Shown here piece after piece: positions 6,679-43,439 of a DNA stretch of 51,778 nt (positions are counted from its first letter, which is position 1; each line of letters begins with the position of its first letter). The translations under genes were made by a program, and so were the position numbers. Under the pieces are notes generated by a model. The model was not told the DNA's origin, made no database searches, and saw nothing but the letters and a program-made list of their open reading frames with translations. The DNA comes from Psammoneis japonica (lineage: Eukaryota): positions 620,001 to 671,778 of the forward strand of contig QPGO01000025.1 of NCBI GenBank assembly GCA_008632985.1. The letters are read 5' to 3'.

Positions 6679-7230
6679 TCATTCTGTATTCGACATAGTA
6701 TTCTCTTTTGCAGTCACGGCTTTGAACGATTCCCAGCAAGAAGGTACATTATATAGGAAAATCTCATTCTGACTCGCATTAGATGGTTTCCATCCCGGAA
6801 TCTCAAATACTTCCGAGACAACAACACTCCCAGGTTTGAGTTCTGCTTGTAGCTTCTCTCTCAGATCAAGCATCATAGGGTTCAATCCGTAGACAACAAC
6901 CACGTCAAAACCAGAAACATCAACTTTCCATAGATCGCGCAAGGCAAACCTAGTCGACGACCAATAAGTCGGAGCTTGGATACATCGTCCCGTAGAGCCC
7001 AAAGATGCAGCACTTTGCACAGGACAAAACAATACGCAAATTCAGTGATCGTTGTGAGTGTGTCACTCCCCGTACTGTATAGCCACAGCTTCAAATCTCT
7101 AGAAAGGACTGGAAATCAAAGACACTCACAGGGATTTATTTCGTATCCAACGCCAACGAAACCCTCTCGAGCTGCTCGAAAGACAACTCGACCGTCACCG
7201 CTGCCAAGGTGAACAAGCTTCAATTTTTCA
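6679..7230 (-). pseudogene. FAM173/ATPSCKMT-ANTKMT-like lysine methyltransferase with a frameshift
   Basis: [20 protein letters not shown]...GYEINP (about 7130-7220), then a GT-AG intron, then LRDLWKVDVSGFDVVVVYGLNPMM...KLQAELKPGSVVVSEVFEIPGWKP. The frame breaks near 6990. The 5' end is not resolved. Confidence 0.7.
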
Positions 7231-9692: not shown

Positions 9693-9929
9693 ATTCCGTT
9701 ATCATGTTAACATCCTCCTTTCAGTTGCGTTGTTGGCGTCAGTCTAGGGCTCTGGAGCGACTAAACAGAACTGAAGATCGAAACACAGTTCAAAGAAGCT
9801 TTTGCAAATGCGAGCGTCGTTGTCCAACTATCGAGTGATAGTCCTTTATACAAAATAATTTGCGTGCGAGAAAAGGCCCAGATAGATGAGGGGGTGGTGA
9901 CGGCTTTTAGGGCCCTAGTGGTAAACTTC

Positions 9930-12061
9930 TCATTTGGATCCGTAGTCATAAAGTGATGTCTTCTTGTGAGATCTTGGAATGGGGATACCCCATTGGCGAA
10001 GAGACTGCACAGGCTCGGATTCAGTCATTTCGACTTGATGTCTGTAAGAGGTAGGTGATTCAGCGGTTGAAGAAATTGAAGAAGCCTCATCCCCGTGATC
10101 GTCGTCTACTGGTTCGCCCACACCAAAGTCTCTGATTACACACGGGAAAACATATCTCGTTTCTGCGAATACAAAACATGTAGTGCATTGCAATAATAAT
10201 GAGAGGATTCGTTCACAAGGGCTTTTCAATAAGGCGGTGGCATTACACTTACCGAAATCGAAAAGGTAGCCACCAGGAGTACCTTCCCTGTAGTTCGTCT
10301 TCATGTATTTATCTTCGTCAACATTCATTTCAATGTTGAGTGCTTTCAACACGACTTCTGTCGTGCCGCCAAGTACAAAGACAGTCAACAGAACAATCAT
10401 CATGGTCGTCATGATAAATTCTTCCGAGTGACCAAAGGTATCCGGGAATTTCCGAGCACAAGCATACGCAACTGCGCCACGTAAACCGCTGAACCATAGC
10501 ATGTTGGCGGTGCTCGACCGAATCTTCAAATCGGCGTGCTGAGGGAGAGTGGCAGTGGCGTCGCTCACAGTGCTAGGGCTTGCCTTGATGGCGGTGGAAT
10601 CCTGCTCTTGTGGAGGCGATTCATGAAGATTCTGCAGCATTTCAATGTTTCCTTCGTCAGAGTCGTTCAAACGGGAGCGAAAGTCCAACCTATCCAATCC
10701 TTCTCGGCTCAGTGTTAGATTGAAGAAGAATGCGATAGGGTACACGTTCAAAGCTCTTCCAACCAAGCAGGCAAATAGCGACCACAGGACGAATCTCCAA
10801 TGTAGAACACCAAACCCAGAAACTCCAAACACACTCATTCCAAGATCCAGGAAGATACTTGTTTCGGCGAGATGCGCTGCCAGTCGAAAGAATACGTCAG
10901 CATTCGCCTCGGTTTCGGGAGAAAGATTCGGAACAGCATACCGCCGAGCAGCAACACCAGTAAATAGAATAGTCACAATTCCCGAGAAGCGCAAGACCTC
11001 GGCCAGCAGAAACGGCACATACATTATGAGAATGTAAAGACACAGCTCCAGCAACCGAGTTTCCCTCATGTCAATATTTTTCAACAAGAACGCGGCACCA
11101 ATTCCACTAATGACTCCCAGACATAGTGATCCTACCGAATCCCAAATGAAATCAAACATAAGCTCAAAGATTCCGAGCGTCACCTTTCCAAAACCATTGT
11201 CCCGCTGAACAAACTTGGCAAACGAATTGAAAAGAACAAGCCCAACAGCATCGTTCATGACGCTCTCTCCAAATACGAGATAAAAGAGTTGTGGATCAAC
11301 CCGTTTTGCCTGAAAAACAGCAAGGGTTGATACTGGATCTGTTGCCGAGATGAGAGCTCCGAATGTCAAAAGCTCGGTGAATGTAGGTTGAAATGGCCCA
11401 GTCAATCCCATACCATCCACAAATCCCAATATTCCAGCGATTGAAAGTGCCGAAATAAGAGTCCCCAGGCATGCAAACAAGAGAATCGGAGTAATGTGTC
11501 GAAAGAATAATTCTTCTCAATTCAAAAGCATAAACAATTGGCGTGAGATCAATACATTATAGTCACACGTGCCCAATTCACAGCTCACAGCAGCCATACC
11601 TCGTCGAATGTGGTATCCTGAATTGAAGATGATGGGAGGGAGAAGCGCAATGAAAAAGACATTCGGTGAAAAGGAGAGCAGACTGTTGGCTACCGTCTGG
11701 TTTGAATCGTCATCATCGCCTTCACCTCCAGCTTGGTTATTGTCCTCATCGGAAGCAAAGAGACTTGCAATTGACCCGGTTATTATTCCTACTAGAAGGA
11801 CCATACCGGCCTCTGGAAGGAAAGATGACAACCTAGGACGGTCATGAAGTAGTTTCTAAAGTTCAGAAGCGAAGTGTCAGTGATGTTATTTTGACGAATG
11901 CTCTTACAAAAGAGCATCAACAGCACATGATCTACCGGTAGCAGGATGAAACGAGGCGAACTCACGCTGAGGACTAAAACAAGCGCCAAAAGGGAAGAGA
12001 AGACGACGAAGTATATCGATATGCCTTGCTCTGTGTCGAATATGCTTCTACTAGCCGGCAT
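9930..12061 (-). CDS. Na+/H+ exchanger, CPA1 (NHE/NHX) family, multi-exon
   Basis: FLPEAG, FSPNVFFIALLPPIIFNSGY, FGALISATDPVSTLAVF, LVFGESVMNDAVGLVLF and WFSGLRGAVAYA. GT-AG introns near 11860-11965, 11515-11598 and 10165-10250. Confidence 0.93.
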
Positions 12062-12676
12062 TGTTTCGTGGTGCCACGCTACGAGAGGTTGTCATTGCCG
12101 TGATGTGTCGTTTGCTTGTGAGAATTTTCATGTGGAATGCCGGCGTCAAAATCAATGTACAGTTCTGGAGGCTTTTGTAATCTTCTCAACGGTTGTTGCT
12201 TCTTCGAAAAGCACTGGTGCCTACAATTTGTAGAGTTTTGATGGACCGATACCAGTAGAGGTCGACGATAGACTCTCCATACCGGTGAGTAGTCTATCTA
12301 CTGTCTGTAGAGAGAGAGAGAGAGACTACGTACGTTACAGGTCGTGATTCTTCCAGTTTCGTAGTTTCCGGCTAGTAGATAGAGTTCGAGAAAGAGAGAG
12401 CAACGTTCAATAGAGAGATTTCTCTATGGAACTCTAGACCGTTGATGTGTCCACAAAGAAGTCACGAACTCTTCAATGCAATTCGCGACTGATTTTTCGA
12501 GGAATAAAGAGTGTAACAAATAAAGTAGTGTGAATTCCTATTACATTTGGCTAGAATGTGAAGCACGCAGCCCTGACGACTGTACTCAGCTTGAGTAAGG
12601 TGAGAATCAACGTGTTAGCTACACCGGTGTGCAGGTTTCTGAATTTGGCTGGCACTTCACTGTGACACCTGACGCA

Positions 12677-14415
12677 CTAGACGTCAATCGTCACAACCGT
12701 ATTCGGAGCATCTTCAAGACTACCCTTTTTCCCACACGCAGCACACTTGGGAGGAAATCGGATGTGCGTCTTGTTGATCAACGTGCAGTAGCGACATTGC
12801 CATTCACATGTTTGCGAGCGTTTCTGGCGCTTGTCGGTTGATTTCTTTTTACCGGATGTGCTCGTTCGAGATCTCTTGCTCGAATCCGAGACTGTAGGTG
12901 TGGTTGCAAAGAAACCAGTGAGTATTCCTGAAGATGAGACTTGAGCAGGTGGGTTGGCTGTCAGATTCGGTTGAGGAGCTGCACTCAAAGTGGATTGACT
13001 CGACGAGCTGACCATTGCGTTGGTTGACGGGATAGTGCTTGCCATCTCCGTGGGACGAGAGACGCTAGGCGTCGCTCCTAAAGCAGCAAGCGGGGCTTGA
13101 GCAGGAATTATCGGGACACTTGCCTGGGAAGAAGCGCTCGAGCTTTGTTGACTCAATGACTCATCAGATGTTGCCGCTGTAGGAGAGGGAACGGCTTTCT
13201 CTGAGGATGCTTCAATCACTGGCCTGTTCTCGTCGCCCACGCACGCATTCAATGCAGTAGCAGCGCTTTCAGCGTCCACTGGCTTAGACCGACTAGCAGT
13301 CTTCCCAGCCCTTTTTCTCCCTTCCTGGATAAGCTTGGAAAAGTTGGCTTTCATTTCAGCGTCAAATGCCGGATTTCCGCTGGTGATTTGGGTGGAAGGC
13401 TCGTCACCCGCCGCTGCGCGGCTGCGGTTGAGTCGGCTCATACACGAGTCAGCATCCGTGAACTTTGATTTTCTCGCTTCCGTCTGAACACAAAATGCAG
13501 AGAAGAATGAGAAAGTAGAGTCAGCAAATCAATAGTAACCGCAGATAACATGTGGAATATTCTCTGAAGACTTACTCGGCGGGCACGTTCGCGTCGTGTC
13601 ACTTCTGCAACAAGTTCTTGAACCGATCGAGGGGAAAAAGAATCACACTCTGCATTGTAGAGATTCAAGAATTCCTCGTGACGGGCCTTGAGTTCCTTGT
13701 CACTACCACTCGTGCTTAATCCATCCTTTGCACAAAGCTCTGCTAGCTTCTTTCGGTTGAGAAACTTATAGACAACTTTTGGTCGCTTCTCGAGACGACG
13801 TGTCTCTTTGCAGGGTTGTTCTGCTTTCTGTTCGAGAGCTTCTTCTTCTTCTTCTTCATCTGTAGATTTCTGTGGGTTTTGTAGACGCGTCGACCTTCTT
13901 GGGCTTATGATATGGCCTCCCTGGTCGCGGGTTACTGCAGAAGGTTCTGCTGCAGCGGCAGAGCCACCCGTCTGATGGGAGGCAAGCTCGCATAGATCTC
14001 TTCTCAGACCTGCTCGGAGAGACTGGTAGTTTTCCGAAATAGTCTGAATTGATCGATTGGGAATCAAATACTTGCTATCGGATACGCTTGTGTTGATTTT
14101 CTCTTTACAACTGGGACAAAAGGCGGTTCGACTCGTCCTAGAGCTGCAGCTTTTGAAATGGCTTCGAATGCACTCGCTGCAAAACGTGTGATGACACGGA
14201 ATCAGAGAAACAGGGTTGCGGAAGAACTCCCCGCAGCAAGGACAACGCAAAGAATTATCAAGGTCTCCCAGCTTTTGATGGAGTGGATTTGAAGCGGAGA
14301 GAGGAGGGGCCTTCCATATGTTTTCGTCGAACTCTTCGACGGAAACTTGTGCAAGTGTCGGATTGAGAGTTGCCTCACCGGAGGCACTCGGTACGTGTGC
14401 AGTTTCTCTATCCAT
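12677..14415 (-). CDS. RAD18: RAD18-like RING/SAP E3 ubiquitin ligase with C-terminal RanBP2-type zinc finger
   Basis: C3HC4 RING CPCCGEFFRNPVSLIPCHHTFCSECIR...CPSC; SAP-like segment LAELCAKDGLSTSGSDKELKARHEEFLNLYNAECDS; intron 13484..13575 (GTAAGT...TTCAG); exon 2 ends with WQCRYCTLIN...CAACG. Confidence 0.82.
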
Positions 14416-16567: not shown

Positions 16568-17877
16568 TGGTCTAAGTTGTTAAGACTTTCGGCAGCAACT
16601 TTACTTCCAACTTGACCTGGCGCCTGGCGGAAGCTTCAAGCGGCTTCGCAAGTCGCAAAACAAGGACCTGCGAACCAGAACCCGGAAACCCAAGCGGAAA
16701 AAACCGACGTTGGAGTTTCGGTCAGTGCTGTGACGAAATGTGATTCCGTATTCCATTAGGAGCACCGCTGGAAAGAAGGAACTTTGATTTTGAAATCCGT
16801 TTTCTCCCTCCAAACTCCACGAACCCGCGAAAACCGACATGCACCCGCCGATCACCGACCAAACGGAAGAACAGAACCCATGAAACCCAAAACGAAGCCA
16901 CCCTTGCATCATCCGCTTTCTCAACGACACACCGGCATTCACCTGGTGTGGTTCCCTTCACCATCGACCACCTGGCAGCCCCCCACTGCATTGCTCACCG
17001 CCTTCTCTCAGGGGCCAACCATGAACACCCCATCCCTGCCCTGTCAGCCCCACCCTGGAACACTGAATTCTCTTTCCAACATCCAGCTGCCCATGCTGCG
17101 TGCGCTCATGCCAAATCATCGCCGTCTGCCATCCTCCCTCTGCTGCCACACCACCGCTTGGCAAAACACATGCCCGCCGCACGCTTCGGCCTGCTGAACC
17201 ACCACACTTTTGCTCAATCACAATGGGGCCTTCAAAGCCTGAGCCTTGCAATTGCCAAATCGCTCGCTGACCAACACTGACCCAATGCTCCGCCAAATTG
17301 CAGCCCCAGCTCTCCAACCCACCCAACCCAAAACCCATCCCTTTTCCTGCCTGCATGATGACTCAGCAGCCATGAGAAAGTCAGGTTGTCTGGCCATGAC
17401 TCAGCGGTGGGAGGGTGGTGCAATCTCTGCTCCAGCTGGCTGCTCCACTCTCTCTCCAGTGTCCAGCCCACCAAGCACCTCACAGTTGAAGTAAAAACCT
17501 CAATTGAGGCAGTTTTTTGACCCCCCTCGATGAATCGACAAAACGTTCGTAGCCCTCAAGTGACATTAGAATGTTGTTCTCAATGCTTCAAAACCTCTTG
17601 AGGCAACAATCAGGCTCTTTGTTTGCTGTTGACCACACATTTTCTTCTTCACCTTGCAACAAGCACATGACATGAAACATGTGTTAAATGCAAGATGACA
17701 TGGTGGTTGAAATCTTGTCAAAAGGTTGTTGTGAATGTGATGGGCCACTTTTGCACCCCAAGTTTGTGGCCATTTTGTGGATCTCAAGATTCAAATTTGG
17801 TGCAAGTGAGTGCATTGCACATGCAAAGCAAAAGGTGTTGCGAGCATTGCAATGGCTTTGTTGTCATTGCAAAGACT

Positions 17878-18790
17878 GCAACCAACCAACCAAACCACTG
17901 AGAATTGAGGGCATTGAGGGTCTCACTTGGAACCAAAGGAACACTTTGAGAACAGTGGTTTGGCGCCATTGCAAGGCTCATCTGGTGCATTTGCAGCCAC
18001 CAGCAGTCACTTGATCCACGCCAGAGTGAGAGCTGAAACTCCTGACTCCAGAGTTAAAAGACACACTGATGCAACCAACCAACCAAACAACTGCAGGCTG
18101 AGGGGATTGAAGGTCACCAGTGGACCCCAGGGATCACTTTGAGAATGGTGGTGGAGTGTTGCAAGGTTCATCTGGCAAAGTTTCTCCCACCAGTCACTCA
18201 CAATCCATGCCAGAGTGAGAGATGAGACTCCTGACTCCAGAGTCAAATGACACACTGATGCAACCAAACAACACAACAGCTGCATGCTGAGGGCATTGAA
18301 GGTCTTCATGGGGCCCCAGGTGACACTTTGAAAATGGTGGTGGAGTGTTGCAAGGCTCATCTGGTGTGGTTGCTGCCACCACCAATCACTTGCAATCCAT
18401 GCCACTGGAGCAAGAGCTGCAAAACTCTCGTGACTCCAGAGTGAAAGGACACACTGACACAGCAAACCAACCCAACAACTGAAATCCAAGGACATTGAAG
18501 GTCTCCAGTGGAGCCAAGGAAACACTTTAAAATGTTGCTGGGGCATCAAACAAGAGCTCATCTGGTGCAGTTGCAGCCAACAGTCATTCAATCCATTCCA
18601 GAGTGAGACCTAAAACTGCTGAATCCAAAGTGAAAGAGGGCCCTGATGCAGCCATCCAACCCAGCAACTGCAGGCTGAGGGCATTGACAGTCTTCAGCAA
18701 AACTCATGGAACAGCTTGAGAAATGTGGTGGATTGTTGCAAGGCTTGCCAACAACCAACCCAACAACTGCATGCTGAGGGCATTAAAGAC
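17878..18790. repeat. Degenerate tandem array, unit about 190 bp, 4-5 copies
   Basis: Recurrent gcaaccaaccaa..aactgca.gctgagggcattgaaggtc...acactttga.aa...gcaaggctcatctgg...gactccagagt. Confidence 0.8.
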
Positions 18791-20059
18791 AAGTTCGGTG
18801 CCCTGCAGAAAACAGCAGATTTGAACAATGTTCCTCTTCCAAGCACACTTGTGGATGATGGTTTGCACAGCAGAGCAAAGATTCTCTTTTGCAAACCAGC
18901 CAGCAGAGCATTTTTTAATGCACGCAATGACACCCCAGCATGCGGTGCGAACCAAGCATTTGCCTTGCCCAAACCTTTTGCCATTGTGCTTTGTGCGTGT
19001 GCATGCAGCCCACATTCAGCCTTTGTGCTGCAACATTGCAATGAGACCGGTTTTGGTGCATTTTGTCAAATCAACCATTTTTTGAAACCATCAGCATTGG
19101 GGACAAAGGGTGGCCCACATCATGGCCAGATGACCTGACTTTCCCACAGCTTCATTTTGCTGTGATTTGTCGAGTGTTTGAAAAACAGCTTTTTCGATGT
19201 CAATGCCCACAAAAACATCCACAATGCCCACGCACATTGCCTGGCCTTGTTTGAGCCATTCTTTTTCATTTTTGTTCATTGAAGACATGGGTGTCACTTT
19301 GAGGAGGTTGACTGGCCAGGTGAGGCCCTTCTTGGTTTGGCAAGAAATGGTGCTGTGGTTTTGTGGCAATCGAGGGTCTTTTTGCTGGTGCCCTCCATTT
19401 CTGAGTGGAAAAACCCATGCTCTGATGTTCATTTGTTCCTGTTGCCTCCTCTGAGGATGTCCATTGCTGTCATTGACTGACCGCAGTCACAAAAAGTTTC
19501 CCCTGTCTTGGCCATGCTGTCGTTTGTCGGAAGCAATGCACTCAACGCCGATGTTTCAGCGCGCCATTGCTGTTCAGTGCTGACAATCCCACCAATCCAG
19601 TCAAGGTCTTCTGTGCAGCAGCATCCAAAACAAAAGATGAGTGAGCAGTCAGCCACCTGACCTCAGAGATGCAAGTGATGCATCTGGCATTTCTTCTTGT
19701 TGCACCTCTGTGGACCATTCCCTCATGTCATTTTTGGTGTGTTCTCTCAGCGAGTCAAAAGGCAAAAGTGCTTGTCATGCTTTCTCTTTGACTCATTTCA
19801 TTGCACACCTCAATGGCTCACACATTCACTTGAGACTGTGCGCAAATCATCCAGGGTGTTGACAAAGCAGCCAGCGCACAAGTGTGAGTGAATTGACTGC
19901 CGCAAAAATCAAGTTGGCTGCTGCTTTTGCTTTCTTTGTGCACGTTTTGGCTGCAGCGTGTCATTCCCATTGCTTTCTTTGTACAAAATTGGCTGTGACA
20001 TTTGCTGCAAATGACATGTCAATCATCCATTCAATGAAAACTGTGCAGACAGCAGGAGA

Positions 20060-20625
20060 GACCCGCCACCTCCGACAACAACGACTGAGTGTGTGTGGTG
20101 CATCAAAAAATGCAGTGTTCTGGCCTCTTGTGCTGCACCTCCAAGACCACAAATTGCAGCAGATCAGATGTGTGTCACGTCACAACAACCCAAAGAAATG
20201 ATGGATGCCCCATTTTGACATTCTGTGTTGCTTCTGGCCCCACGAGCGACCCGCCACCTCCGGCAACAATGACCAAGTGTGTCCAAAAAATGCAGTGTTC
20301 TGGCCAATTGCTGCACCTCCAAGACCACAAATTGCAGCAGATCAAATGTGTGTCTTGTCATGACAACTCAAATCAATGATGGATGCCCTGTTTTGACACT
20401 CTGCATCGTTTCCAGCCCCACAAGCGACCGGCAACTGCCGACCGAGAACCAAAGCGTGAAAAAAATGTGTTGTGTTCCGGCCTCTTGCTGCACCACCAAA
20501 ACCACATGTTGCAATGGCTCAAGCATGTGTCTTGTCATGACAACCCAAAGCAACACTGGATGCCCTGTTGCAGTTTTCTGCATCGTTTCCAGCCCCACAA
20601 GCAGCCGGCAACCAACGACCAGAGA
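20060..20625. repeat. Degenerate tandem array, unit about 178 bp, 3 copies
   Basis: Recurrent aaaaaatgcagtgttctggcc...gctgcacctccaagaccacaaattgcagcagatca...gatggatgccc...gccccac.agcgacc. Confidence 0.85.
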
Positions 20626-21436
20626 AAACAAAAAAAACCTCCACGTCCATCTGGGTGCCAAAGAAACACGAAACCTTTGAAAGATGCCAACAACAAAACA
20701 ACTGCACCACCAAACTCAGCACACTCGAACTGCCTTTCACCAATGTCTGACGCCAAAATGTCGTCCCTCTGATGGCTGGTTGATGAGTGGAGCCAAGTTT
20801 TGGAGACAAAAACAACCACACCCTGCCCACACAAATGCAAAAGAAACTCAAAAGCTTTTGAAGACACCAACAAAAACAAAACACCACTGTGCTCACCATG
20901 TTTGAATTACCTTGTGCCAATGCTCTTGCCGCTGCGACATTGTCCCAGTTGCGGGCAGGCACTCAACGCCTCCATTTGAACAAACACATGTCCAACGCTT
21001 TTGCTGTGATTCATTGAATGGCCAAACAAACAGCTTTCCGACGACAATGCCCACAAAAACATGCACAATGCCCACAATTCGCGAATCAATGCCCAAGCTC
21101 AACGCATTCTTGCTCTAATTGGGCAGGAACTCAACGCCTCCATTAAAATAAATGTGTGTCCATCGCTTGAAGCTACTGCAGCGCAGCGCAGCGCAGCAGC
21201 AAGTGCTGTAAGTAAGCAACGCAAGGTCCACCTTACTCCGCGTCTGTCCCCCCCCGCGCGCCACTACTAGCTGACGTTGCAGCACGTGAACCCCCATTTT
21301 CGCGTAACCTTACCCTTACCGCCAAAAAATCTCGCACCTCGCACCTCCCATTTTCACGGTTGTCTTGTTCTGAGGTCCACCGTATAAATACGATAAATAG
21401 CATTTGAAATCAACTCGGCAAGTGCGAACTGCAGCA

Positions 21437-24213: not shown

Positions 24214-24953
24214 TTATGACTCTTGAGGGAGAACATCACGATTAAGCACAACCAATCCTTCTGTTGTTGCGTGTACTAACTCTTCTCCTCCAATCGGATC
24301 AACAAGCTTTGCGTAGATCGATACCTTGCGTCGCTCAATTCTGACAATTTCCGCCACCACCAACAGATGCGAGTTCACCATAATTGGACGTTTCAGAGAC
24401 GTATTGACTTGCACAGTAAAACCACTCCATGGCAGGCACTTTCCGGTAACGCAAAAAGCACACCAGCCAACGATATCGTCCATGATACTACACATGCTCC
24501 CGCCATGACAAAAGCCCTTGTGCGACTCGGCTCGCTTTGTAAAGTGAGCAGCACCGACTAATTTCGTCCCGACACCTCCAGAATCGTTGCCATTAATACC
24601 TTCTCCATCCGCGTACTCCACACGATATTCTAACATTCTTACAGGAGCCTTGTCGCTGTGAACCAGATCGGTTCCCTAAAGTCACGGATCGAAAAACGGC
24701 GGAATTTTTTGTTCAGTTCCCAGTTCCCATGTTATGCAATGAGAAATATCCTATATCCTATGAGCTAAAGAAAACCTACCCTCCATCCATTCTTCTCTCG
24801 ATACCTCTTATCCTCCCACTCTGGAATCGACAAGCGTTCCCCAAATGATTCGTAGTTCTTCTCAAACCACTCAGGCACATCCGCTGGAGAAGACGAAAAA
24901 GTTTCGTCGGTTGTTGGCTCGAGAACTTCAGCCGAGGGAGACAACACCGTCAT
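24214..24953 (-). CDS. HotDog-fold thioesterase (THEM4/PaaI-like), 2 exons
   Basis: AESHKGFCHGGSMCSIMDDIVGW...FTVQVNTSLKRPI. Intron at about 24677-24779 (GTAGGT...TTTAG). Confidence 0.82.
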
Positions 24954-25308
24954 TCTTGAGAAACGACAATAGATCTGCAGAGAATAAAGTGGGGTTGGGC
25001 GGGAGGAGTTGCTCAATGGAGTTGCTATCCCGTGGTTGAGAATTCAGGCGTCGCGTCATTGTGGACCTTTCTTGTTCGTGTTTTGTCCGTGTTACGTCAT
25101 GCTTTCATCGCGCGATTCAAAGCCGCGCGAACAAGAATCAATGGGAATCATTCGGGTCCTGAGAGTCATCACGTAGAAATTGTGTAGGAGAGTACTAAAA
25201 ATAATTATTATCAGTCTGTCCATCCATCCGTATACGAATGTCAACTTCTCGGGAAATCAATTGAAATGCCATCTGATTGACGGTATTTTGATTCACATGG
25301 TGAAGGCC

Positions 25309-26869
25309 CACCCCTGTGGTAGGGGGAGCTGTGTGTGTGTGCGTGGTTGTGCGCGCACGGCTTCTCCGTGCGTTGAGTTTTAATGTCAACATCCACACGA
25401 GTGTGTGCACTCCACAAGCAAAAATTCCTGTTCCACAGCTCCCCTGAAACTCCAACCACCAAAAACCGAGGGGTCGGAAGCGCACTTTTTGGAAGACAGC
25501 ACACACACCAAAAAAATCACGCGTTTTTGACGACTCGACCATGAGGATGCCTCGTGGTTCTTCCCCATCGCCTTCCCAGGACGCCGATCCTGCTGATGCC
25601 GTTGCCAGTGACACTGATGCAACAGGCAATGTCATCACTCCGGTTCTCGTGGGTGTGACACATGCAAAATAAGATGCTACAAACTCACACTGTTGTTTGC
25701 ACGCTCCACAGCCTCCCACAGATGCTGTCACGAATTCCAAAGCCACACCTGCGTTTCGGGCCCCTGGCATGTCCGACACTGTTGCTCCTGCCCTTGCTGC
25801 CGCAGGCGCTGTTGATGCTGTCATTGTCTTTTGCCAATGACATCCACAATGAAGTGCCAACGACTCACACTTCTTTCATTCTCACCCCACCGCCTCCCAC
25901 AGATGCTGTCACGAATTCCAACGCTGTGCCTGCGTTTCGGCCCCCTGGCATGCAAGATGCTGTTGATCCCACCCTTGAGGCAACATCATGGTCGAGTCGT
26001 CAAAACACGTGTTTTTTTGTGCGGAGAAAAAGAGCTCCCAGAAGTGCGCTTCCGACCCCTCGGTTTTTCGTGGTCAGAGTTTTAGGGGAGAATGTGGTTC
26101 AGGATTTTTCCTGTTGCCATTGGCACTTGTGTGCAAATGCACAAATGAATGTGAGGACATTTGCATGAAAACACAATGAATGAGATGCAAACTGCCACGT
26201 GACCATGACATCACCACATTCTCCCGGGCATGCCAGGGGGCCGAAACGCAGGCACGGCGTTGGAATTCGTGACAGCATCTGTGGGAGGCGGTGGGGTGAG
26301 AATGAAAGAAGTGTGAGTTGTTGGCACTTCATTGTGGATGTTGTTGGCAAAAGACAATGACAGTGTCAACAGCACCTGCGGCAGCAAGGGTGGGAGCAAC
26401 AGTGTTGGGCATGCCAGGGGCCCGAAACGCAGGTGCGGCTTTGGAATTCGTGACAGCATCTGTGGGAGGCTGTGGAGCGTGCAAACAACAGTGTGAGTTT
26501 GTGGCATCTTATTTTGCATGTGTCACACCCACGAGAACCGGAACAATGACATTGCCTGTTGTGTCAGTGTTGTCAGCAACGGCATCAGTAGGATCGGCGT
26601 CCTGGGAAGGCGATGGGGAAGAACCACGAGGCATCATCATGGTCGAGTCGTCAAAACGCGTGATGTTTTGGTTTGTGCGCTGTCTTCCAAAAAGTGCGCT
26701 TCCGACCCCTCGGTTTTTGGTGGTTAGAGTTTTAGGGGAGCTGTGGAATAGGAATTTTTACTTATGGAATATACACATTCGTGTGCATATTAACATTAAA
26801 ACTCAACGCACGGAGAAGCCGTGCGCGCACAACCACGCACACACACACAGCTCCCCTACCACAGGGGTG
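25309..26869. mobile_element. Non-autonomous foldback/MITE-like element; inverted arms of about 645 bp (25309-25953 and 26228-26869) around a spacer of about 274 bp
   Basis: Starts cacccctgtggtagggg and ends cccctaccacaggggtg; the arms align throughout. Each arm holds a direct repeat of about 60 bp (25711-25771 / 25892-25952). The spacer holds a third partial copy of the subterminal segment (about 25985-26090). Confidence 0.88.
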
Positions 26870-27041
26870 CAACATCCTCTGTCCTCTGTCTGCTTCCTCC
26901 GTGGTCATCATAAGATCACCCAGTCGCCGACCACGTCCCCCCACCTTCAACTCACGACAACCCACGACAGCGGCACATCTTTCTTGCTCAACACAAATAC
27001 ACATTCGTTTACGTTGAGTGCGCCTGAGACGTTATCGAACC

Positions 27042-28787
27042 ATGAAGCGTTCAAGGGGAGTAATGTACAATGTGTCGATACATCCAAAGGCTCAATCCGT
27101 TATCGCCATGACGTTGGCGAGTGCCCTTCATTTTTCTGGATACGAGTTTGCTAGAAGTTCAGTCTTGGCCATGTTCACATCCCATCGTACGGGCTTTTCT
27201 AATCCTTCTGCGCTTCCGTTTGCTACCGGGTGAGTGCTATTCACATTTGATCGTATGCTGGTACAATCTGTGATGCTGCGGGCTATTTTCTTACTCACGG
27301 TCATCTCTTCCTCGAATCTTCCCTGTGTGCGTAGTTGCGTCGCTCCTTTCTCGATATGCTTGCTAATGATATACACAAAGATTTTAAGCAAGAGTGGTCC
27401 TCAAAAGGCTCTTCGATACAGCACGTTATTTTGTGCCTGCATGTTCTCATGTGGTGGGTTGATGCTAACTACTATTGATGAGTACCTTGATGATGATTTA
27501 ATTCCCAGCGAGGCAGCGTCCCAGCGAAACATTTACCATTCGATATCCGTGTAGCTCTGTTTTTCATGTATGTGCTACAAAGTGGGTTCGTGCAGCTGTT
27601 GTACACACAACACTGGTCCTTTCTTGGTTCCATACAAAGCCGCGAAGAGGGAGCTGTCTGGTTTTCGCTCATTGCGGGAATTGCGTCCATTTCATCGACT
27701 CTGGCTGCCTTTTCGGTGGCGCCGTTGGTAGCTACGATGGGATTGGGAGGATTATTGTATGCAGCAGCGTCTCTATTGATTCTAAGTGCCATGTGCGGCG
27801 ATTGGGCCTACAATGTTGCGGATCAGGTAAGTTTCTGAGTACCGTTTTGTATTGCTATACAATCCTTCCATTCTGAATAGTTTTGTTTCTGACAACATAT
27901 TTCGTGTTGTAGTATGGCTTCGAACCACGGAAAGTAACTGAACAAAAGAGTTCAAAGAAAAAGAGCAGTAGCACCGATCAATCCTTGCTCCTCACTGCCC
28001 GCCGCTTGTTTCGTAGAGTGCCCGTACTAGGCGCGCTTTGTTCTGAGGTCTTGGGCTGTCAATGCTTGTCGTCTTTGATTTCATTCTTGTACATGATGCA
28101 AGTGAAAGAGAGTATTGCGGATGACGAGAAGCGAGCTGCATGGACTGGGAATTGCTATGCATGGATCAACGGAGTGAGCGGCGTCATTCAGTTTTTCGCT
28201 CTTCCGCTTCTGGTTAAGCACATTGACACCCGATCAATTTGGCTGTTCATGCCTCTTGTGATGATGTGTTTCACCATGTTCCTTGGCTTGCAACCTACTG
28301 TTTCTTTGGAGCTCATAACCGCTTCTTTCTTTGCAATGAAGACCATGGAGTATTCGCTCCGTGGAGTAGCAAACGAGATGGTGAGTTGCAATGACAAGAT
28401 ATCGTCGCCGTCCTCAACTCGTACTGGGATAATAAATTGTCCTCATCTCCCGGGTTTTCTCACCGTTTGATTGTGAATGCATAGGTATATGTGTCGCTTG
28501 ATTACGAAAGTAGATTCGTCGGAAAGGAAATCGTTGGGCTATTTGCAAACAGACTGGGCAAGTCGTTTATGGCTGTAAGTCTCTCTGCAATTACAGCTGC
28601 CTACGGCTCCGATTCTGGAATGTTTTGTCAAATTGCAATGGCATCTAGTTGTGTTTCAGCTTGTTGGTTTGCTGCGTCGTTTCGCCTTACAAAACTAGTG
28701 GATATATCTAACCCGACAAAGGGAAACGCACTCTGTATGGAAAGAGCGACCGTTAGATGCGAAGATACATTAATCCTTTCTCATTGA
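27042..28787 (+). CDS. NTT/TLC (ATP/ADP carrier-like, MFS) membrane transporter, multi-exon, with an apparent 1-bp frameshift near 27548
   Basis: Many TM segments; GYEFARS; WSFLGS...WFSLIAG; KTMEYSLRGVANEM/VYVSLDYESRFVGKEIVGLFANRLGKS resembles the TLC-family C-terminal motif. GT-AG introns near 27230, 27827 and 28381. Confidence 0.7.
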
Positions 28788-29103
28788 TGATCTCGATGAG
28801 ATTGTCTTGAGCTCATTTGGGGGGTGGAGCACTCAAGCAATGTTTGCCGAATTTACTCATCCGTTTCAACAACCAATGCATGACGCTGAGACCATCACTT
28901 TGGAAGTATCCCCTGCAATCCTCGATAAATGCTTCGCGTTCAATGTCGCGTCTGCCACGCAGGAGCATGAAGCGTTAGTGGAACCGGAGCATGAATCCCC
29001 ATCTCTAAGAAGGAACCGGAACAAGACAAACATGGTGGCTCGTCCTCAAATGGCAATGGCAATGACGACTCTGGAGTAAACGAAATTGTATAAAGAATGT
29101 GCA

Positions 29104-29285
29104 GACGCCATTTCATTCTCTGGCAGCCTGTTGTCTCTGTCCAAAACAAGCGGCGATGGGTAAGCAACAGCTTTCCCTCGGTCGGCCCATGATCAGCACG
29201 GTACGAAGTATTGCTTTCAACAGGATTCTCGGCACGTAGGTGGTATCATAGGCTTCTTTCAACGGATTTCCTTACTCGTCCCTGT
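29104..29285 (-). pseudogene. Diverged duplicate of the 3' end and downstream flank of the gene at 33146..34027
   Basis: gacgccatt...aaaacaagcggcgatggg...gaagtattgctttcaa.aggattctcg...ggtatcataggcttc...caacggatt...ctcgtccctg aligns with about 33081-33263. Confidence 0.85.
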
Positions 29286-31799: not shown

Positions 31800-33080
31800 T
31801 TTGTTTCTGGATGCCACAGTCCTTGTGATGAAATCCACTAAGGTATGTCAACATGAAAAGATACATGAGAGAAGACTGAAGGAAAAAGTGCGAATCGCTT
31901 GCAATGATCTTACATTGGACATGGATCCACTCACTCCGGCATGGCCAAATAATGTGGGAAGGCTCCTCTCATCGTCAACAAACCGAATCAACTGGTATCC
32001 CATAGCAAGCGATACGCCCTGATCTTCGCTTTATTTCAGTGGACACGTCATGGCGGTCTGTCCTTGAAGCATGTTTGTGGTACTCTTGTTTGTCACCACG
32101 GCTGTTGCCGCATCCAGAATCTTTGCTAACCAGCTGGCTTGTTCCCAGCTCACGATAGAATACTGCCAGACCCAAAGCTGAAAAACGGCCTCCAGCTGCA
32201 GGACGTTTCCATTTAAAGCCTCTTGGCACTTCCTGATTCCTTGGTCAAGGAAGAATTCTTTGCCACGAAAAGACTTCCTGGCCTTGTTCAGAGCAGGGCT
32301 GGAGAAGTCAGGATCATCAATTCCGACTGGAGCTGTCTTCTCCCGTTGCTTTTGCCTCTCTTCTCTTCTTGAAAACCTGTAGATTTTTTTCCACTGATGT
32401 ATCCGTTTGAGCCATGGGGAATCCACCATCCTTGCCGAAGGGCTAAAAACCCAACATTCGAAACGCTCTTTTGGATTTTGGCTCGAGCACGGCACGGTGT
32501 CGTCGTACCTCCTCGAACGTAGCAGCTTCCTTCCAGTGTTTCACTGAGCACGCGCCACACCAGGTACCGATGACAAGCCAACCAAAAGACATAATGTGGT
32601 GTTCGCACTTCTCATCAGGTCGAATGCTCATTCTCGTCGGCAAGGCAGTCCAGAAGTCAGCAGAGTGCGTCAGGATATGTCGAAGCATAATGGAGCGTTT
32701 CTAAAGCCAACACTGTTCAAGGTCTCTCACTGAAGTTGACATGACACGTCTCAACTCCTCCGGTGAGGTTTCTGTCGGACAGAATGCTTTCCAAACGCGT
32801 TCTGAAACTGGTTCATTATAAGAAAGGCAACCAGCCTCTACCATTATGTGGACCAACGTCGCGGTAACCACTTCTCTAGAGGAATATCAGAGAATGACTG
32901 CATCAGGACGCATCTTTTTAAGGCCGCCCATATGCCCAGTCCATCCATGCGTGTGACAGCAAGTTCCCGTCCGAGTCCAAAACGCAAACTTGGGCACCTG
33001 CAACATTCCTTCTCACTCAATTCTCCAACAGCAGCATTAACACGATTCTGGTGTAAACGTAACTATATAGAGCATGTTTA
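31800..33080 (-). pseudogene. Decayed coding-like sequence of unknown family
   Basis: Overlapping minus-strand ORF fragments (32031..32495, 32443..32688) with protein-like composition, broken by frameshifts. Confidence 0.25.
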
Positions 33081-33145
33081 GACGCCATTACATTTCTGTA
33101 AGCCTTTGTCTCTGTTAAAACAAGCGGCGATGGGGTTAGAAACAG

Positions 33146-34027
33146 CTATCCCTCTGTCGATCCATGATGAGCACCGCATGAAGTATTGCTTTCAAAAGGA
33201 TTCTCGCCGACCACATAGGCGGTATCATAGGCTTCAATCAACGGATTCCCTTTCTCGTCCCTGGCGACCATTTCATCCAACGAAGCAATTTTCTGGTCTA
33301 CGGTTGACGCTAATTCTGACATGGTCAGCTCGTACACCTTCTTTGATTTCCACACGGAGCAAAACAAAGCCAAGTCCTCGTTGATTACACCCGAGAGATA
33401 CAAGAGACAACTACTTTGTTGACGATAGACACTCCCTTGAGCCGCATCCATGCCTTTTGCATATTCTTCGGCCTGTCCTTGTTGCGTTTTAACTTGACGC
33501 AGTTGGAAATACAAGTCGTTCCTTGGGACAGTACTAAGGTCGAGCTGAAAGTCGCTTCCCATAATTTCATCGAATGAAAGCTTTGTAGCAAGATCCGGTG
33601 TGGGAAGTGACGAAACGTCTCCCACAGAATGCTTGGTTATAAATGCTCCAGGTGGTCCACTGATTCGATCCATGAAGCTTTGACGAATCGATGACAGTTT
33701 GCTCGCATCCTCGGCATCCTTCGGAAGGGAATCAAATAGCTCCCGGTCTGACCACACATGAAAGCCCAACAGGGCATTAGGATCCTGTTCACAGGCGCCA
33801 AACAGGTAGTGGATATAGCCAGGTTGCTGGCGATAAAATCGTCCCATGGTTGCTTCAAAGCCTTGCAGACATTCGTCGCGCATGCCTTCCTGAAATGGCA
33901 CCTTCATGCATCCAAAATAGACGGATGACGACGACATGCTGCTAGAAGTAGAAATGGCCACCGCCCTATTCGAAAAGAGATGACCGGAGAGTAGCGGTGC
34001 AGCAAGAAATCGTCTCACCAACGACAT
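33146..34027 (-). CDS. Protein with two ABM-like (dimeric alpha+beta barrel) domains and a possible mitochondrial presequence
   Basis: Internal repeat FYRQQPGYIHYLFG...LLGFHVWSDRE / VYRQQSSCLLYLSG...ALFCSVWKSKK. N-terminus MSLVRRFLAAPLLSG is R/S-rich and lacks acidic residues. Confidence 0.6.
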   Translation of the reverse strand: MSLVRRFLAAPLLSGHLFSNRAVAISTSSSMSSSSVYFGCMKVPFQEGMRDECLQGFEATMGRFYRQQPGYIHYLFGACEQDPNALLGFHVWSDRELFDSLPKDAEDASKLSSIRQSFMDRISGPPGAFITKHSVGDVSSLPTPDLATKLSFDEIMGSDFQLDLSTVPRNDLYFQLRQVKTQQGQAEEYAKGMDAAQGSVYRQQSSCLLYLSGVINEDLALFCSVWKSKKVYELTMSELASTVDQKIASLDEMVARDEKGNPLIEAYDTAYVVGENPFESNTSCGAHHGSTEG

Positions 34028-36227: not shown

Positions 36228-38386
36228 CAGCAGTAAAGCCGTTAGAGGTTTGTCTGCTTTTTTTAATTAGGTATGGTTGTCTAACAAACAAACACTGTAG
36301 CATCGGATGCTTTGGCGGGCCGGCATTTTTAACTTTGTGACCTGCGCGGCTAAGTAGCAGGCCCTGCGAGTGCTAGCTCTAGAGAGTAGAGAGGAGTACG
36401 TCGGGCTCTAACGCAGCGAGTGCCTCTCCCATCATGGCTGGGAGCGGCAAGCGAGGACACCGGTAGAAATAAATGCTACGGCAGGTAGACTAGCTCTAGC
36501 TGCACGCAGTTCTGGCGGTCTGCACGTCTGTCATCAAGTCGCTTCAAGAGGTTGTGCTTGCAGTGGAGATGTTCTCCGTTGACACTCGGTCACGACCCTT
36601 GTTTTTTAATCTGGGTGAGAGAAGGTTGATTGTTCCTTGCTTTGTTGCAGGCTCTGTTTATTCTGAGACAAGAAGGTGAGACCAGTGGAATTTGCTCCCT
36701 TTGTCAGAGAGTTGCATGTGACTTGTTCTTGCAGCTGGTGTTGTGTGTGGCAACGTCATTGTGATGTGGGCAGAAAGCAGCTGGCCTGATGGCTGTGACC
36801 AAATGGTGTGGAGAGAACACAAGCACGCAGCCATGTGACATGGAACTTTCTAGAGCAAACATGGACTTGGGTGGCCTCTCTGGTTCGCGCACTTTGCCCG
36901 TGCATTGGGTGGGTGCTGCGCGGGCGGCACACGGTCTCGCCACCAGCCATCCCATTGCATCAGTCAGCCATGCAACCCTGTTTCTGCAGCACCTTTTCTG
37001 CATGGAATTTGCAGTGTGGGGAACATGCTGACTGTGCAAAAAAGTGCAAACATGTCCTCACAAATGTGTTTTGCTGAGCAGGTGCCAGTCATTTTTTTAA
37101 TCGGGTTTTTTCAACAGCTTGCTCACTTGTTGTTGCAGATGGCAGCAGCTGTGCCACCTGATGCTGACTTGGCATCAACTGCTTGCAGTGTGGGCTTGGT
37201 GGCTCAGCATGCATGGGTTGTCAACAATGAAAGATTCATTGCATCAGAGCCTCGGCATCCACCAGTGCTGACCATGCTGCCACGCAAGTGGCCACGCATC
37301 TTGCAGCTCATGCAAACAAAACAAGATGTGCTGGCCTTGGCACTGTTCAGATTGAAAGGATTCAGGTTTTGGCACCCCACTTTGGCCACAGCTCTTCTTG
37401 TTTTGCACTTGTGGCAAGAGAAGAGATTGGATGTTTTTCACTTTGTTGCAGGCTCTGTTTTTGTTCATCCAGAAAGACAGCATGAGACAACCAGTGGAAA
37501 AATCTGCTTGGAGGGTTGTGCACAACTGCTTGCAACCAGCAGACCTCCCAAGCTGGGAGTGGCTCATGACCAAAGTTGTGTTGTCCTGAGTGCAAGTGCA
37601 GCTGCAACAGCTGAGAGTTGGACAAAGAGGAAGACAGCTGCAGTGCAGTGGCAGTCAACAGGTCTGCGACAACTGTGAGATCATCAACCCAGAGTTCAAG
37701 CAATTGTTGGCATCAGATGCACTGGCTGCCCAAACACATGGTTGGCAGAGGCACACATGCACACATGTGCTCACATCAGCACACACACCTTGTTCACTGG
37801 ATCCTTTCAAACTTGTGCTGGTGGCTTCAGCAGGCATTTGCAGCAAAAGGTCAGATTGGGCAACTCAGCGCTGTCCAGCCCCACAGCTGGGATGCATTTG
37901 GGGTGAAAACCTTGTTCCTGCAAGAAGCCCATTTGACCCACCCTGTTGGAACATTCAGATCATGGGGATCCCAAGGAACCCAGATGCACTGATGGAAGAG
38001 CATCTTTGGTTGCTGACATCACATTTTGGTGACTGTTCTTTGAGGATTTTTCTCTGTTGTCAACCCCTCTTGATTGCGTTTTGATGTCACTCTTTTGAGT
38101 GATTCATCTGGCTCATCAATCTGTTTGATCTGTTGGTTTCAACAAGTGCCTGAGTTGTTGTCATTGCAAGTTTGAAGTTGCAACACAGTGAACTTCCAGG
38201 CAAACCACAGCCAACCAAGCAGCCAGGGCAAGCATGACAAGCAGCACAGGAAGCTTTGTAAGATTCCCTTTTGGCAGCATTAACTTGCCAGTTCAACATT
38301 TTCACTCAGAAGAATCATTGGTGCCATTGGAAGGCTTGTCACCCACTGAGCTGCCATCAAGCAAAGACTGCACAGCTGCACAATGA

Positions 38387-41300
38387 GTGGCAGAGGAAGA
38401 GGTTCAGGTGGAAGAGACCAAGGAAGAGGAAGTGGCTGAGGCAGAAGTGACAGGAGTCACAGGTCAGATCAGAAGAAGATTGCCTTTTAACAAAACAAGC
38501 TTTCAGCCTGAGATGATCCACCCTTCATTGCTGAACAGCAATTCTTGTGATGCAACATTTGAAGAGGACATTGATGAGAAGCTTGAGCACTTGACACAGA
38601 AAAAATGCAAGCAAGGTGTCCACCTGACAAAGTCCATGGAGGAGAAAATGGAGTGCATGGATTTTAGCTCTGAGAAGCCCACATTGAAGAGCTTGTCAAT
38701 TGCCCAACCAAAAGACAACCGCAAGATGGCCAAGAAAGAGCAAGAAGAAAAAGCACTCAAGTGCAAGCACAGAGTTGAGCTCAGTGACTGCCACAGATGG
38801 TTGAAACAGCTCAAAGAGTGCAAGACTGCCACAGTTGCCAAGATTTTAGACAACTCCTGCACCAAGCAACACAATCAGTCCCTGACATTGAACTCCATGA
38901 GAGGTTGACATCTGTTCCACATGCTCACTGAGGCCATGAAGAACATCCTGCAAGTGAGACAGCAAGAGAATGAGTCATCAAATGACTGTCTGTCAGGGTT
39001 CAAAATCAATGAGATGCCACAAGAGAGGTGCTGGGAAAGGAGATGCTAAATGAATTCATTTCCAATGCTGCAGAATTCAAAGATGCCAGCACAAGCAAAC
39101 AAGACAAAATGAAGGATGCAACATTTGACACATGGATGACTCACCTGTTCATAGATGACAGTGACAACTGCTGTCACAAGAGCCTGAAAAAGAGCTTTGT
39201 GAGAGACTGCAGTCTCAGACGGAATGTGCACCCAAAGACTCTAGACAGGGTGTGATGGATGTGCCGCTGAACCGTCCATTGGACAATGACCCCAAGAACC
39301 ACCACAAGAGAAGAAGAACAACAAATGAAGAGATGAGAAGGGCAACGATGATGAGAGCAGCAGGTCTGACAATGCAAAGGACCAGGGTCATGCCCAGAAG
39401 AGCAGCAACAGTGACACAACGTCATGCCACTGCTGTGGTGAACCAAATCCCAGTCCCCCAATGCAAGCACAAGAACAACATTGCGTTCAATGACTGGTTC
39501 AAGAACACTGGAAGAAAACCAGGTGCCAGGAGGGCAGAGCCATGCACAAGCTTGAGGTGGCAATGAAGACCACTCATTGGTTGGAAGCAATGACACAAGC
39601 ACTGACACCACCAGATCTACCCAGTCAACATGTTCCACCCAAAGCAGAGGAACAGTGGACTGGATCACAGCTGGTTGATGTCAAACCAGACATGAGCACA
39701 AGCCAAGCTGACACAGGCATCAAGGGCAACAAAATTGTCCTTGACAATGGTTCAACCCTCAGCATGGCAGCAAGCTGGAAGTTGGTGCACAACATGCAAC
39801 TGGCAAAGACCAAGATTGATTTGTCCATGAATGCAGGAGTGGATGCCCTGGACAAGGACTGTGCCATGTGTGGATGGGGGGGGNGGGGGGGGGGTGCATG
39901 AAGCTCAGATCAAAGGATGCAACAGCAAATGTCCTGAGTCTAAAGGATGTGACAAGCAGACACTGTGCAACATGCAACAACAGAGTGCCAGATGAGCTCT
40001 GGCTGCTGAACAAGAAGACTGGCAAACAAGAAGCAGAGTTCAAGGTCATTGACATTAGACTGCATGCACTCATGCTGAGCCAGCAATTCTTTGACTGCAT
40101 CAAAGGACTCCAAGAGAATGAGTCACATGCAAGCATGTTGTCAAAGAAGAAGACAAAAAAGAAGCAAAAACATGGCACAAAGTGCAGGAGCGCATCCAGA
40201 ACTGTGGCTCTGACTGTGGAACAGAACTCCAAGGGCTGCTCCAAGAGGGAGGCAGCAAATGCCAAGTGAGTGTTCAGGCTGTGTTGCAAGGCTGAAACAC
40301 CCAGTGCAAGAGAGTTCAAATGATTTTTGCACACTCTGATCAGGTGAAGAATCTGTCCATTGCACCAGACGATGTTGACAGAATGGTGGCCATTTGGGGT
40401 CCACCTGTTGACATGTTGAAGGGCAAGACCAAGTGTGCGCATCTTTCCCATGAGAGGAACAACATGACAGCCATCCCACCTGAGATTTGTGAGAAGTAAA
40501 GAGAAGGCATGATCCTCTGCATTGACATCATGGAAGCATGCAGAGCCAAGCCACAGCACACAATTGACATGACAATCAAGTGCCAATCAAATGAGAGACT
40601 GATGAAGCACAATGAGCATGCTGATGTGTGCATCACACTGGACATGACTCTCTGACAGCACAACATGGCACTGTTCAAGATTGGCTCTGTTGAGAGTGAT
40701 CACAAATTCAAGGCTGTGCTGGCCAAAGCAGCAGATGGCATGAGTTTGGAATTGCTGGATGTCAACACTGGCAACCATGTTCTAGAAGTGAGGTGGAGCA
40801 TTGAGACCATCAAGGAGTGAACCTGCACCACTGCACACCACCCGCCATGCAAAATGACACCCAAGGTGATGTGCAAGCATGTTGTGATCAAGAATGCTGT
40901 CATGTCAAACATGCACCCACAGAAGGAGGGGTTCTCCAATGCATGCAGTCCATGCACCATCATGCAGCAAAGGAACCTCAACTGCAACAAGCCCTTTGAG
41001 TTTAAATTTGGAAATTGAGAACAACCCTGCCAGTGCAATGGACACATGCAGTGTTGACAGCGTGCATCTGCAACCATGGTTTGCTTGCCCAAGGGTTGTC
41101 ACTACACTGTGAACCTGCACACAGCAAAGCTTCTGAACCCCCTCCCCCCATGAGTGCACCACAGCCCCACTGACTGAAACACACATCCAAACAGCCAAGA
41201 AGATGGCATCCTCCCAAGGCATTGAAGACTTCAAGTTCACAGGGAAGTGCAGTTATGATCTCTGTGATGCTGGTTGGAGCAACTGCAGGAGTGGGCAATG

Positions 41301-43430: not shown

Positions 43431-43439
43431 TTGGTCATT

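Follow-up and report, generated by a model that had tools for sequence, protein, structure and literature searches.

One-sided TA versus CA/TG differences between the arms of a foldback repeat in Psammoneis japonica are consistent with TpA-targeted hypermutation of repeats

The window analysed here, a stretch of 51,778 nucleotides (nt) of Psammoneis japonica (contig QPGO01000025.1 of assembly GCA_008632985.1, positions 620,001 to 671,778 of the forward strand), holds a foldback element whose two long inverted arms carry very different numbers of TA dinucleotides near their outer ends. The foldback sits between divergent genes, namely a 4HBT thioesterase-like open reading frame (ORF; 24214–24675, − strand) on one side and a gene starting near 26992 on the other. 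When the arms are aligned in full, which a preliminary description of this locus had proposed as a check, they are 93.3% identical and their divergence falls mostly at pyrimidine-purine (YpR) dinucleotides; 31 of the 35 arm-vs-arm substitutions are transitions, and the outermost 70 bp are identical. In a repeat search, the arms come out as one inverted pair of 429 nt (94%) plus a second of 191 nt (93%). Between the arms lies an older, partial third copy of the arm terminus (hereafter the inner copy), which runs in the same orientation as the right arm and opposite to the left arm, and which served as an imperfect outgroup. The observed/expected ratio (O/E) for the foldback is 0.20 for TA and 0.73 for CG.

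Read data came from three runs of one sample (X1, X2 and a third run) that were compared with positions 24800–27400 of the window; X2 is recorded only as ‘DNA?’, the third run is tiny (1,439 records), and those parts of the foldback without listed contig pieces are uninformative. In the unique flanks, X1 contigs are identical to the window (0 other letters over records of 2,983 nt and 200 nt, at a depth of 53–58), and X1 can therefore be taken to represent accurate reads. Over 25139–26887, X1 depth is 350–13,800, compared to 53–105 in the flanks, and because it is so far above the flanks we regard the foldback as a member of a multi-copy family. Of the 1,021 contigs that could be aligned here, 798 are 90–99% alike, and for 223 the likeness is 99% or more. 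In a single X1 contig, 26046 (inner terminus copy) is joined to 26707 (right-arm terminus), with 660 bases skipped and 9 other letters in between, which suggests that the element also occurs elsewhere in a simpler form of unit length. In its long inverted arms and multiple copies, the element fits a foldback transposon, i.e., one with long terminal inverted repeats. No flanking direct repeat (target-site duplication) is seen at 25308/26870, and a search of this window for a transposase or an autonomous partner found none. Long open frames run through both arms in the same register (25195–25875, − strand, 226 amino acids; 26306–27154, + strand, 282 amino acids); they have no protein relatives and are most likely a by-product of the missing TAA and TAG stops in TA-poor DNA.

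The contrast between the arms is sharpest in their outer segments of 80 bp (Table 1), where a count by hand had given 12 differences. We recovered the same 12 in an alignment without gaps: 11 transitions and a single transversion (C at 25393, opposite 26786). At all 11 transitions the left arm has G or C and the right arm has A or T (p = 0.001 for this one-directionality). Nine of these sites are TA in the right arm and CA (6) or TG (3) in the left arm (25387, 25390, 25407, 25408, 25415, 25419, 25430, 25446 and 25453), and the other two transitions (25401 and 25410) lie at ApT, both as described before; the TA count is 10 in the right segment and 1 in the left. If the right arm is taken as the ancestor, the probability that at least 9 of 11 random A:T>G:C changes land in TA is p = 0.001, and if the left arm is taken as the ancestor, the probability that at least 9 of 11 random G:C>A:T changes make TA is p = 0.010. 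Both strands appear to have been hit, because the left arm carries T>C (7) and A>G (4) alike on the + strand. No TA was converted twice, as expected if a converted site is no longer a target.

The preliminary description had also raised the possibility of assembly errors, to be checked in reads. At the 11 transition sites, the X1 contigs on either outer arm carry the letter of that arm throughout, and thus both arm versions occur in the reads. The sole listed X1 variant for the right arm at 26714–26800 is at 26786, where 71% of the depth (one contig, 409/573) has the left-arm letter. The earlier observation that the only TA shared by the two segments lies in TTAA (25380–25383) stands within these 80 bp, and the immunity of TTAA that it might imply is not absolute; a further shared TA lies just beyond the segments, in GTAG at 25321.

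Across the whole arms, YpR/YpR dinucleotides hold 27 of the 31 transitions, compared to 309 of the 604 identical positions (Fisher p = 6 × 10−5). Only 8 of the 35 substitutions fall outside the YpR class, which amounts to 1.2% of 642 columns; because these differences are so few, the arms can be considered close copies whose divergence is nearly all at TA, CA, TG and CG. In the inner arms, the reported homologous sites with TG in one arm and CA in the other were found at five places (25618, 25636, 25789, 25816 and 25838), next to one site with TA in both arms and two with TA in one arm and CA or TG in the other. Inner-arm CpG is kept in both arms at 24 sites and in one arm at 6. Under uniform CpG decay, 0.19 TG/CA doublets are predicted vs. 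the five observed (p = 1.7 × 10−6), and the counts 1/2/5 fit a TA ancestor lost with a probability of 0.84 per arm. This excess over CpG decay, together with the fit to a TA ancestor, supports the earlier proposal that a symmetric dinucleotide was hit independently on opposite strands. An argument from the doublets for a ‘same chromosomal strand’ was rejected, being a tautology for inverted repeats.

Some TG/CA sites, a minority of the differences, are due to CpG decay. Six inner-arm sites have CG in one arm and TG or CA in the other, and at 25627–8 CG, CA and TG are all present among the family copies in X1 contigs. The paralogous 181-bp sub-repeats, compared as an outgroup for the doublets, align poorly at the doublet columns; in two units, CG stands opposite a left-arm CA or TG. 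Among the 33 variant rows of the X1 contigs, 24 are transitions, of which 22 are swaps among TA, CA, TG and CG.

Beyond the foldback, five depleted blocks (Table 1), together 17.1 kb or a third of the window, have a TA O/E of 0.03–0.10 and a CG O/E of 0.09–0.41, with a CA/TG O/E of 1.3–2.6, an unchanged GC content of 0.47–0.49 and stretches of up to 1,161 bp that lack TA. They are interspersed, with sharp borders, among genic DNA of ordinary composition, in which TA O/E is 0.4–0.77 and CG O/E is ~1. Because the repeat blocks end nearly TA-free, the net process in the repeats of this genome appears to be TA loss and not a gain such as that produced by repeat-induced point mutation (RIP). Inside the depleted blocks there are two tandem arrays (17877–18745, 4.5 copies of a 189-bp period, and 20104–20602, 2.8 copies of a 177-bp period; 73–79% matches), between the units of which CA/TG doublets number 20 vs. 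6 other double transitions in one array and 15 vs. 8 in the other; two duplicates outside the depleted blocks have 0 such doublets. We read the doublets in the arrays as the footprint of independent YpR decay after duplication, which argues against a foreign ‘native’ composition. A Pfam search of 24 depleted-block ORFs (E up to 1) gave only matches far below the cut-off, and the same search of six read-through frames of 36588–47081, with stops read as X, gave 0 families.

The TTAA tetranucleotide is largely, although not absolutely, spared. Of the TA dinucleotides that survive in the depleted blocks, 23/62 lie in TTAA, compared to 53/1,332 elsewhere (Fisher p = 3 × 10−15), and the density of TTAA is 1.33 per kb in the blocks vs. 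1.53 per kb outside. Other TA-containing tetranucleotides are nearly or entirely gone from the blocks: ATAT and TATA are absent, GTAC drops from 3.16 to 0.17 per kb, and GTAC and CTAG are both down more than 10-fold, with TGCA and CATG being 2–3 times enriched.

Arithmetic on these counts gives the scale of the effect. With a background of 0.6% per site per arm, the TA loss (~0.85 per arm, shared between two target bases) comes to a ~150-fold excess and the CpG loss (0.11 per arm) to a ~10-fold one. Given per-target excesses of ~150-fold vs. ~10-fold, TA erasure would outpace CpG decay, and because it runs ahead, the foldback has the composition expected of the fully erased blocks at a younger stage. 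Of the 11 presumed ancestral TA of the outer arms, the left arm has lost 9 and the right arm, which also keeps the TA at 26589–90, has lost 0. The right terminus is thus a stretch of ~280 bp without loss at shared TA sites; beyond it, toward the centre of the foldback, the two arms are converted to the same degree. The switch in conversion lies at ~26563–26589; the element ends ~300 bp away, and the X2 contig of the neighbouring gene starts after ~400 bp (26992).

Table 1. Positions and properties of the foldback, its parts and the other repeat-like features of the window
Positions	Strand	Feature	Properties and evidence
25309–25953	+	Left arm of the foldback	blastn, 93.3% identity to the reverse complement of 26228–26869, 645 columns
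26228–26869	−	Right arm of the foldback, repeating the left arm in inverted orientation	blastn and repeat search
25379–25458	+	Outer segment of the left arm, presumed converted state	1 TA, 12 CA, 6 TG
26721–26800	−	Outer segment of the right arm	10 TA kept
25970–26140	−	Inner copy: older third partial copy of the arm terminus	~79% identity to both arms
26141–26227	.	Central spacer between inner copy and right arm	Matches neither arm
25706–25977	+	Two tandem sub-repeats of ~181 bp, present in each arm	Mirror copies at 26226–26475
25139–25276	.	Separate short, very high-copy repeat (138 bp), abutting the left arm	X1 depth 7,075–13,832 (flank: 58); bordered by loose ends at 25139 and 25276
1–1838	.	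Depleted block	TA O/E 0.03, CG 0.20, CA 1.69, TG 2.01
17183–20967	.	Two adjacent depleted blocks, 17183–20407 and 20645–20967	TA O/E 0.05 each; CG 0.23 and 0.41
36588–47081	.	Depleted block of 10.5 kb	38 TA, O/E 0.06; 53 CG, O/E 0.09
50275–51483	.	Depleted block	TA O/E 0.10, CG 0.18

The 138-bp repeat next to the left arm reaches ~100–240 times the flank depth in X1 contigs; the copy in the window keeps TA (9 TA in 80 bp), and other copies have CA or TG at six of these TA, in 19–65% of the depth. A dispersed direct duplicate in DNA of ordinary composition (29065–29284 and 33042–33263; 225 columns, 82.7% identity) has no CA/TG doublets. In the 10.5-kb block, 8 of the 53 remaining CG are clustered within ~50 bp (36886–36938), like a small island escaping decay, and the only N of the window, a single base at 39884, lies in the same block. 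On the right side of the foldback, an X2 contig in 26992–27400 skips 27229–27333 (105 bases with GT..AG ends) like a spliced transcript, and after the region of this contig comes an ORF (27913–28470) with a weak match to MFS_1. Scans of the window with Rfam and for tRNAs gave 0 matches each.

The direction of change at the nine TA sites can be approached through the inner copy and the rest of the window. Conversion of TA to CA/TG in the left arm, as first proposed, is supported by the TA-stripped blocks, by the inner copy at 25446 and 25453, by the excess of doublets and by an analogue in the alga Bigelowiella natans that is discussed below. The inner copy has TA at the homologue of 25446, like the right arm. 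At 25453, the homologues in the three copies read CA, TA and TG, a pattern that favours a TA ancestor because it takes two steps from TA vs. at least three from CA or TG; TA is also found in 34% of the X1 contig depth at the inner-copy homologue of this site. The inner copy is nevertheless a weak outgroup, in which parallel conversion is expected because it is itself TA-poor. On the whole, these comparisons make loss of TA the probable direction, favoured over the reverse by roughly four to one. Treating the arms as an internal control of equal age assumes that they diverged in place. Our preferred reading, to which we assign a probability of about 0.62, is that the repeats are subject to TpA-targeted A:T>G:C hypermutation along with a slower CpG decay, and that the left arm and both inner arms were converted and the right terminus was spared.

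Several points weigh against this reading. The second TTAA of the right arm (the homologue of 25386–25389) is TCAA in the left arm, so that one of two TTAA in the segment is converted. With 10 TA per 80 bp, the right-arm segment ranks among the richest 0.65% of 80-bp stretches in the window (334 of 51,698), which makes it an unusually TA-rich ancestor. The inner copy shares TG with the left arm at 25430 and G at 25401, a site outside TA, and this demands either parallel conversion or a change in the right arm. At 25678, a left-arm TA stands opposite CA in the right arm, and both paralogous sub-repeats have CA too, implying that CA>TA changes occur too. The 138-bp repeat, TA-rich beside a converted left arm, does not fit a simple model of a spreading domain. 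The direction is drawn from the window and the X1 contigs: a protein search with the arm ORF gave 0 relatives among proteins of 102–328 residues, and pattern scans of metagenomes for further family copies gave 0 loci. The X1 contigs are short and possibly come from the very sample behind the assembly of the window, and read coverage is limited to the foldback region, with the depleted blocks lying outside it. The evidence consists of standing sequence differences and not of newly arising mutations, and a scan of 54 ORFs of the window found no nucleic-acid deaminase family, one ORF matching FTCD_C (Formiminotransferase-cyclodeaminase). The lineage, too, has one protein as its basis: the genome appears to be that of a diatom-like stramenopile without a close relative in the protein collection, judging from a Na/H exchanger (ORF 9930–11516, − strand) with 1,108 relatives at E up to 1 × 10−10 and a best full-length identity of 53–55%; among the 120 relatives listed, six are named by organism, and all six are diatoms.

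Given that the foldback belongs to a high-copy family (depth 350–13,800 vs. 53–105), the same process might have acted elsewhere than at this locus, with the two arms, or the right terminus, inheriting different conversion histories through head-to-head insertions or through ectopic gene conversion by an unconverted copy; the arms would then be no control of equal age. Such a history would be in keeping with the simpler form that joins 26046 to 26707 (one contig), with a composite locus that includes an older inner terminus, with a contig depth above single-copy over both outer arms, and with the abruptness of the right-arm switch from saturated conversion to none at ~26563–26589. We nonetheless consider it unlikely, if worth serious attention, because outside YpR sites the arms differ at 8 of 642 columns, which is very close for a family with copies mostly 90–99% alike, and because their outermost 70 bp are identical; moreover, 219 of the 1,021 contigs fit both arms, so that depth cannot show a multi-copy left-arm version. 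Contig depth as a guide to the commoner arm version was rejected on the same count, with within-bin depth ranging from 573 to over 4,000, and is also undone at 25322, where left-arm contigs carry the right-arm form. A different explanation reverses the direction, such that the left arm is ancestral and RIP-like CpA>TpA (equivalently, TpG>TpA) changes made the nine TA in the right terminus. The production of TA would then also be non-random (p = 0.010 for at least 9 of 11), the single TA of the left arm would match a TA-poor element (O/E 0.20), the inner copy agrees with the left arm at 25430 and 25401, and 10 TA per 80 bp is rare in the window. This explanation is quite improbable, given that the repeats of the window are stripped of TA, the opposite of what RIP does, that the inner copy has TA at 25446, that the three-state site at 25453 needs at least three steps from CA or TG, and that the TG/CA doublets are left unexplained; RIP is called fungal in the RIPCAL paper (PMC2621366), whereas the window protein tested is diatom-like.

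More improbable still are errors of assembly, polishing or base calling at modified TA and CG that were fixed only near unique flanks. The TA kept in the right arm do lie close to unique DNA (at most ~160 bp from the flank beginning near 26888), the third run is tiny, and the read comparison covers the foldback region and not the depleted blocks; however, the X1 contigs of the flanks are exact, i.e., the reads are accurate, 223 of the 1,021 contigs are at least 99% alike, no other letter appears at the 11 transition sites of either outer arm, and TA/CA/TG/CG swaps between contigs occur at depths of hundreds to thousands. The 138-bp repeat, at ~100–240 times the flank depth, keeps its TA in the assembly, which an error of unpolished repeats would not have allowed. 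We give hardly any credence to ADAR-like A-to-I editing of a hairpin RNA transcribed from the foldback and fixed in DNA through reverse transcription. The arms would indeed make a long double-stranded RNA, and ADAR prefers a 5′ U (as reported in the main text of bioRxiv 10.64898/2026.01.13.699255), but T>C (7) and A>G (4) on the + strand indicate that both strands were hit, blocks that are no foldbacks are erased too, no reverse transcriptase or other Pfam family was found in the 24 ORFs and six read-through frames searched in the depleted blocks, and that preprint describes ADARs in metazoans. Two general processes were also rejected: GC-biased gene conversion, which lacks TpA specificity, and selection against TA, which is implausible as a means of clearing 1-kb stretches of non-coding repeats while TTAA is spared.

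TpA-targeted hypermutation, the reading that we prefer, has its closest parallel in B. natans, a chlorarachniophyte, as far as the main text of a recent preprint describes it (Mettrop et al., bioRxiv 10.64898/2026.01.13.699255, 2026). In mutation-accumulation lines of this alga, 231 of 302 new nuclear mutations were located in two integrated viral regions, where the mutation rate was elevated ~1000-fold; all but one of these mutations were A>G or T>C, and those directed toward GC were all at TpA. The long-term footprint consists of clustered windows that are poor in TpA and rich in CpA+TpG, and an ADAT2-like adenine deaminase was proposed as the enzyme. The pattern in P. japonica is alike in that A:T>G:C changes at TpA give TpG/CpA (if the right arm is ancestral) locally and not genome-wide, in that TpA depletion with CpA+TpG gain occurs in clusters of 1-kb windows, and in that what is hit appears to be foreign or repeat-like DNA in which few domains are annotated. 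It differs in that the lineage here is diatom-like, that TA O/E is 0.03–0.10 compared to a Rho of 0.45 in the B. natans region derived from a nucleocytoplasmic large DNA virus (NCLDV), and that short non-coding repeats and a foldback are among the DNA affected. Furthermore, CpG is co-erased in the same blocks here and TTAA is largely spared, whereas neither CpG nor TTAA is mentioned in the main text of the preprint; relative to that text, near-complete erasure, CpG co-erasure and TTAA sparing are new. In the full-text literature, we found no report of TpA-restricted hypermutation in diatoms or other stramenopiles, and one such report overall, that on B. natans.

Other known systems share parts of the pattern. 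Like fungal RIP, it is a dinucleotide-specific transition hypermutation of repeats that can saturate and that hits copies unequally; RIP, however, changes C:G to T:A, mostly CpA>TpA, such that TpA rises and GC content falls, whereas here TpA is removed and GC content is 0.47–0.49. The decay of CpG through 5-methylcytosine in methylated transposons would likewise give CG vs. TG/CA sites and the CG O/E of 0.09–0.41 in the blocks, but it cannot produce differences of TA vs. CA/TG, and at a uniform rate it yields 0.19 doublets vs. the five found. Animal APOBEC3 (C>U in DNA) and ADAR (A>I in double-stranded RNA) similarly cause clustered, context-specific transitions in selfish or foreign nucleic acid; the changes here are A:T>G:C on both DNA strands, unlike those of APOBEC, which gives G:C>A:T, and those of ADAR, which acts on RNA and on one strand.

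A mechanism that would account for these patterns can be outlined as follows. The foldback family would be a multi-copy, apparently non-coding repeat in a diatom-like genome, the copies of which, presumably once silenced, are targeted by a process that turns TpA into TpG on one strand, equivalent to CpA on the other, through A:T>G:C changes that hit each TA once. In parallel, CpG would decay more slowly to TpG/CpA, most simply by deamination of 5-methylcytosine in the same silenced DNA. At this locus, the left arm, the inner arms and the inner third copy would have been processed until ~85% of their TA was gone, and the last ~280 bp of the right arm would have escaped with its ancestral TA. 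The likeliest chemistry would be the deamination of adenine to hypoxanthine at 5′-TpA-3′ in DNA, with hypoxanthine then copied as G, and the enzyme might be of an ADAT2/TadA-like type, following the proposal made for B. natans. The same footprint would be left by a modification of thymine at TpA that causes it to mispair with G.

If the preferred reading holds, the foldback is a compact natural experiment, in which copies that differ at 1.2% of ordinary sites differ at ~85% of TA sites. It sets the scale of the rate excess and provides a sharp boundary of action that can be compared with maps of chromatin, methylation and small RNAs. The sparing of TTAA gives a lead, open to testing, on the enzyme or on a mark that protects the site. 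Repeats altered in this way lose TAA and TAG stops, show long spurious open frames and become poorly recognisable by homology, which affects genome annotation. The mechanism would not be confined to one alga, could reach near-complete erasure of TA, and would target ordinary repeats besides integrated viruses. It is an even bet, in our view, that diatom-like algae possess a RIP-like defence that works in the opposite chemical direction, by which TpA in silenced repeats is converted until it is gone, with TTAA exempt and CpG decaying alongside; they would be the second lineage with such a defence, after Bigelowiella. This would suggest that the system is widespread in the supergroup of stramenopiles, alveolates and Rhizaria (SAR), and that the TTAA rule reflects either a modification protecting the site or the enzyme's own specificity.

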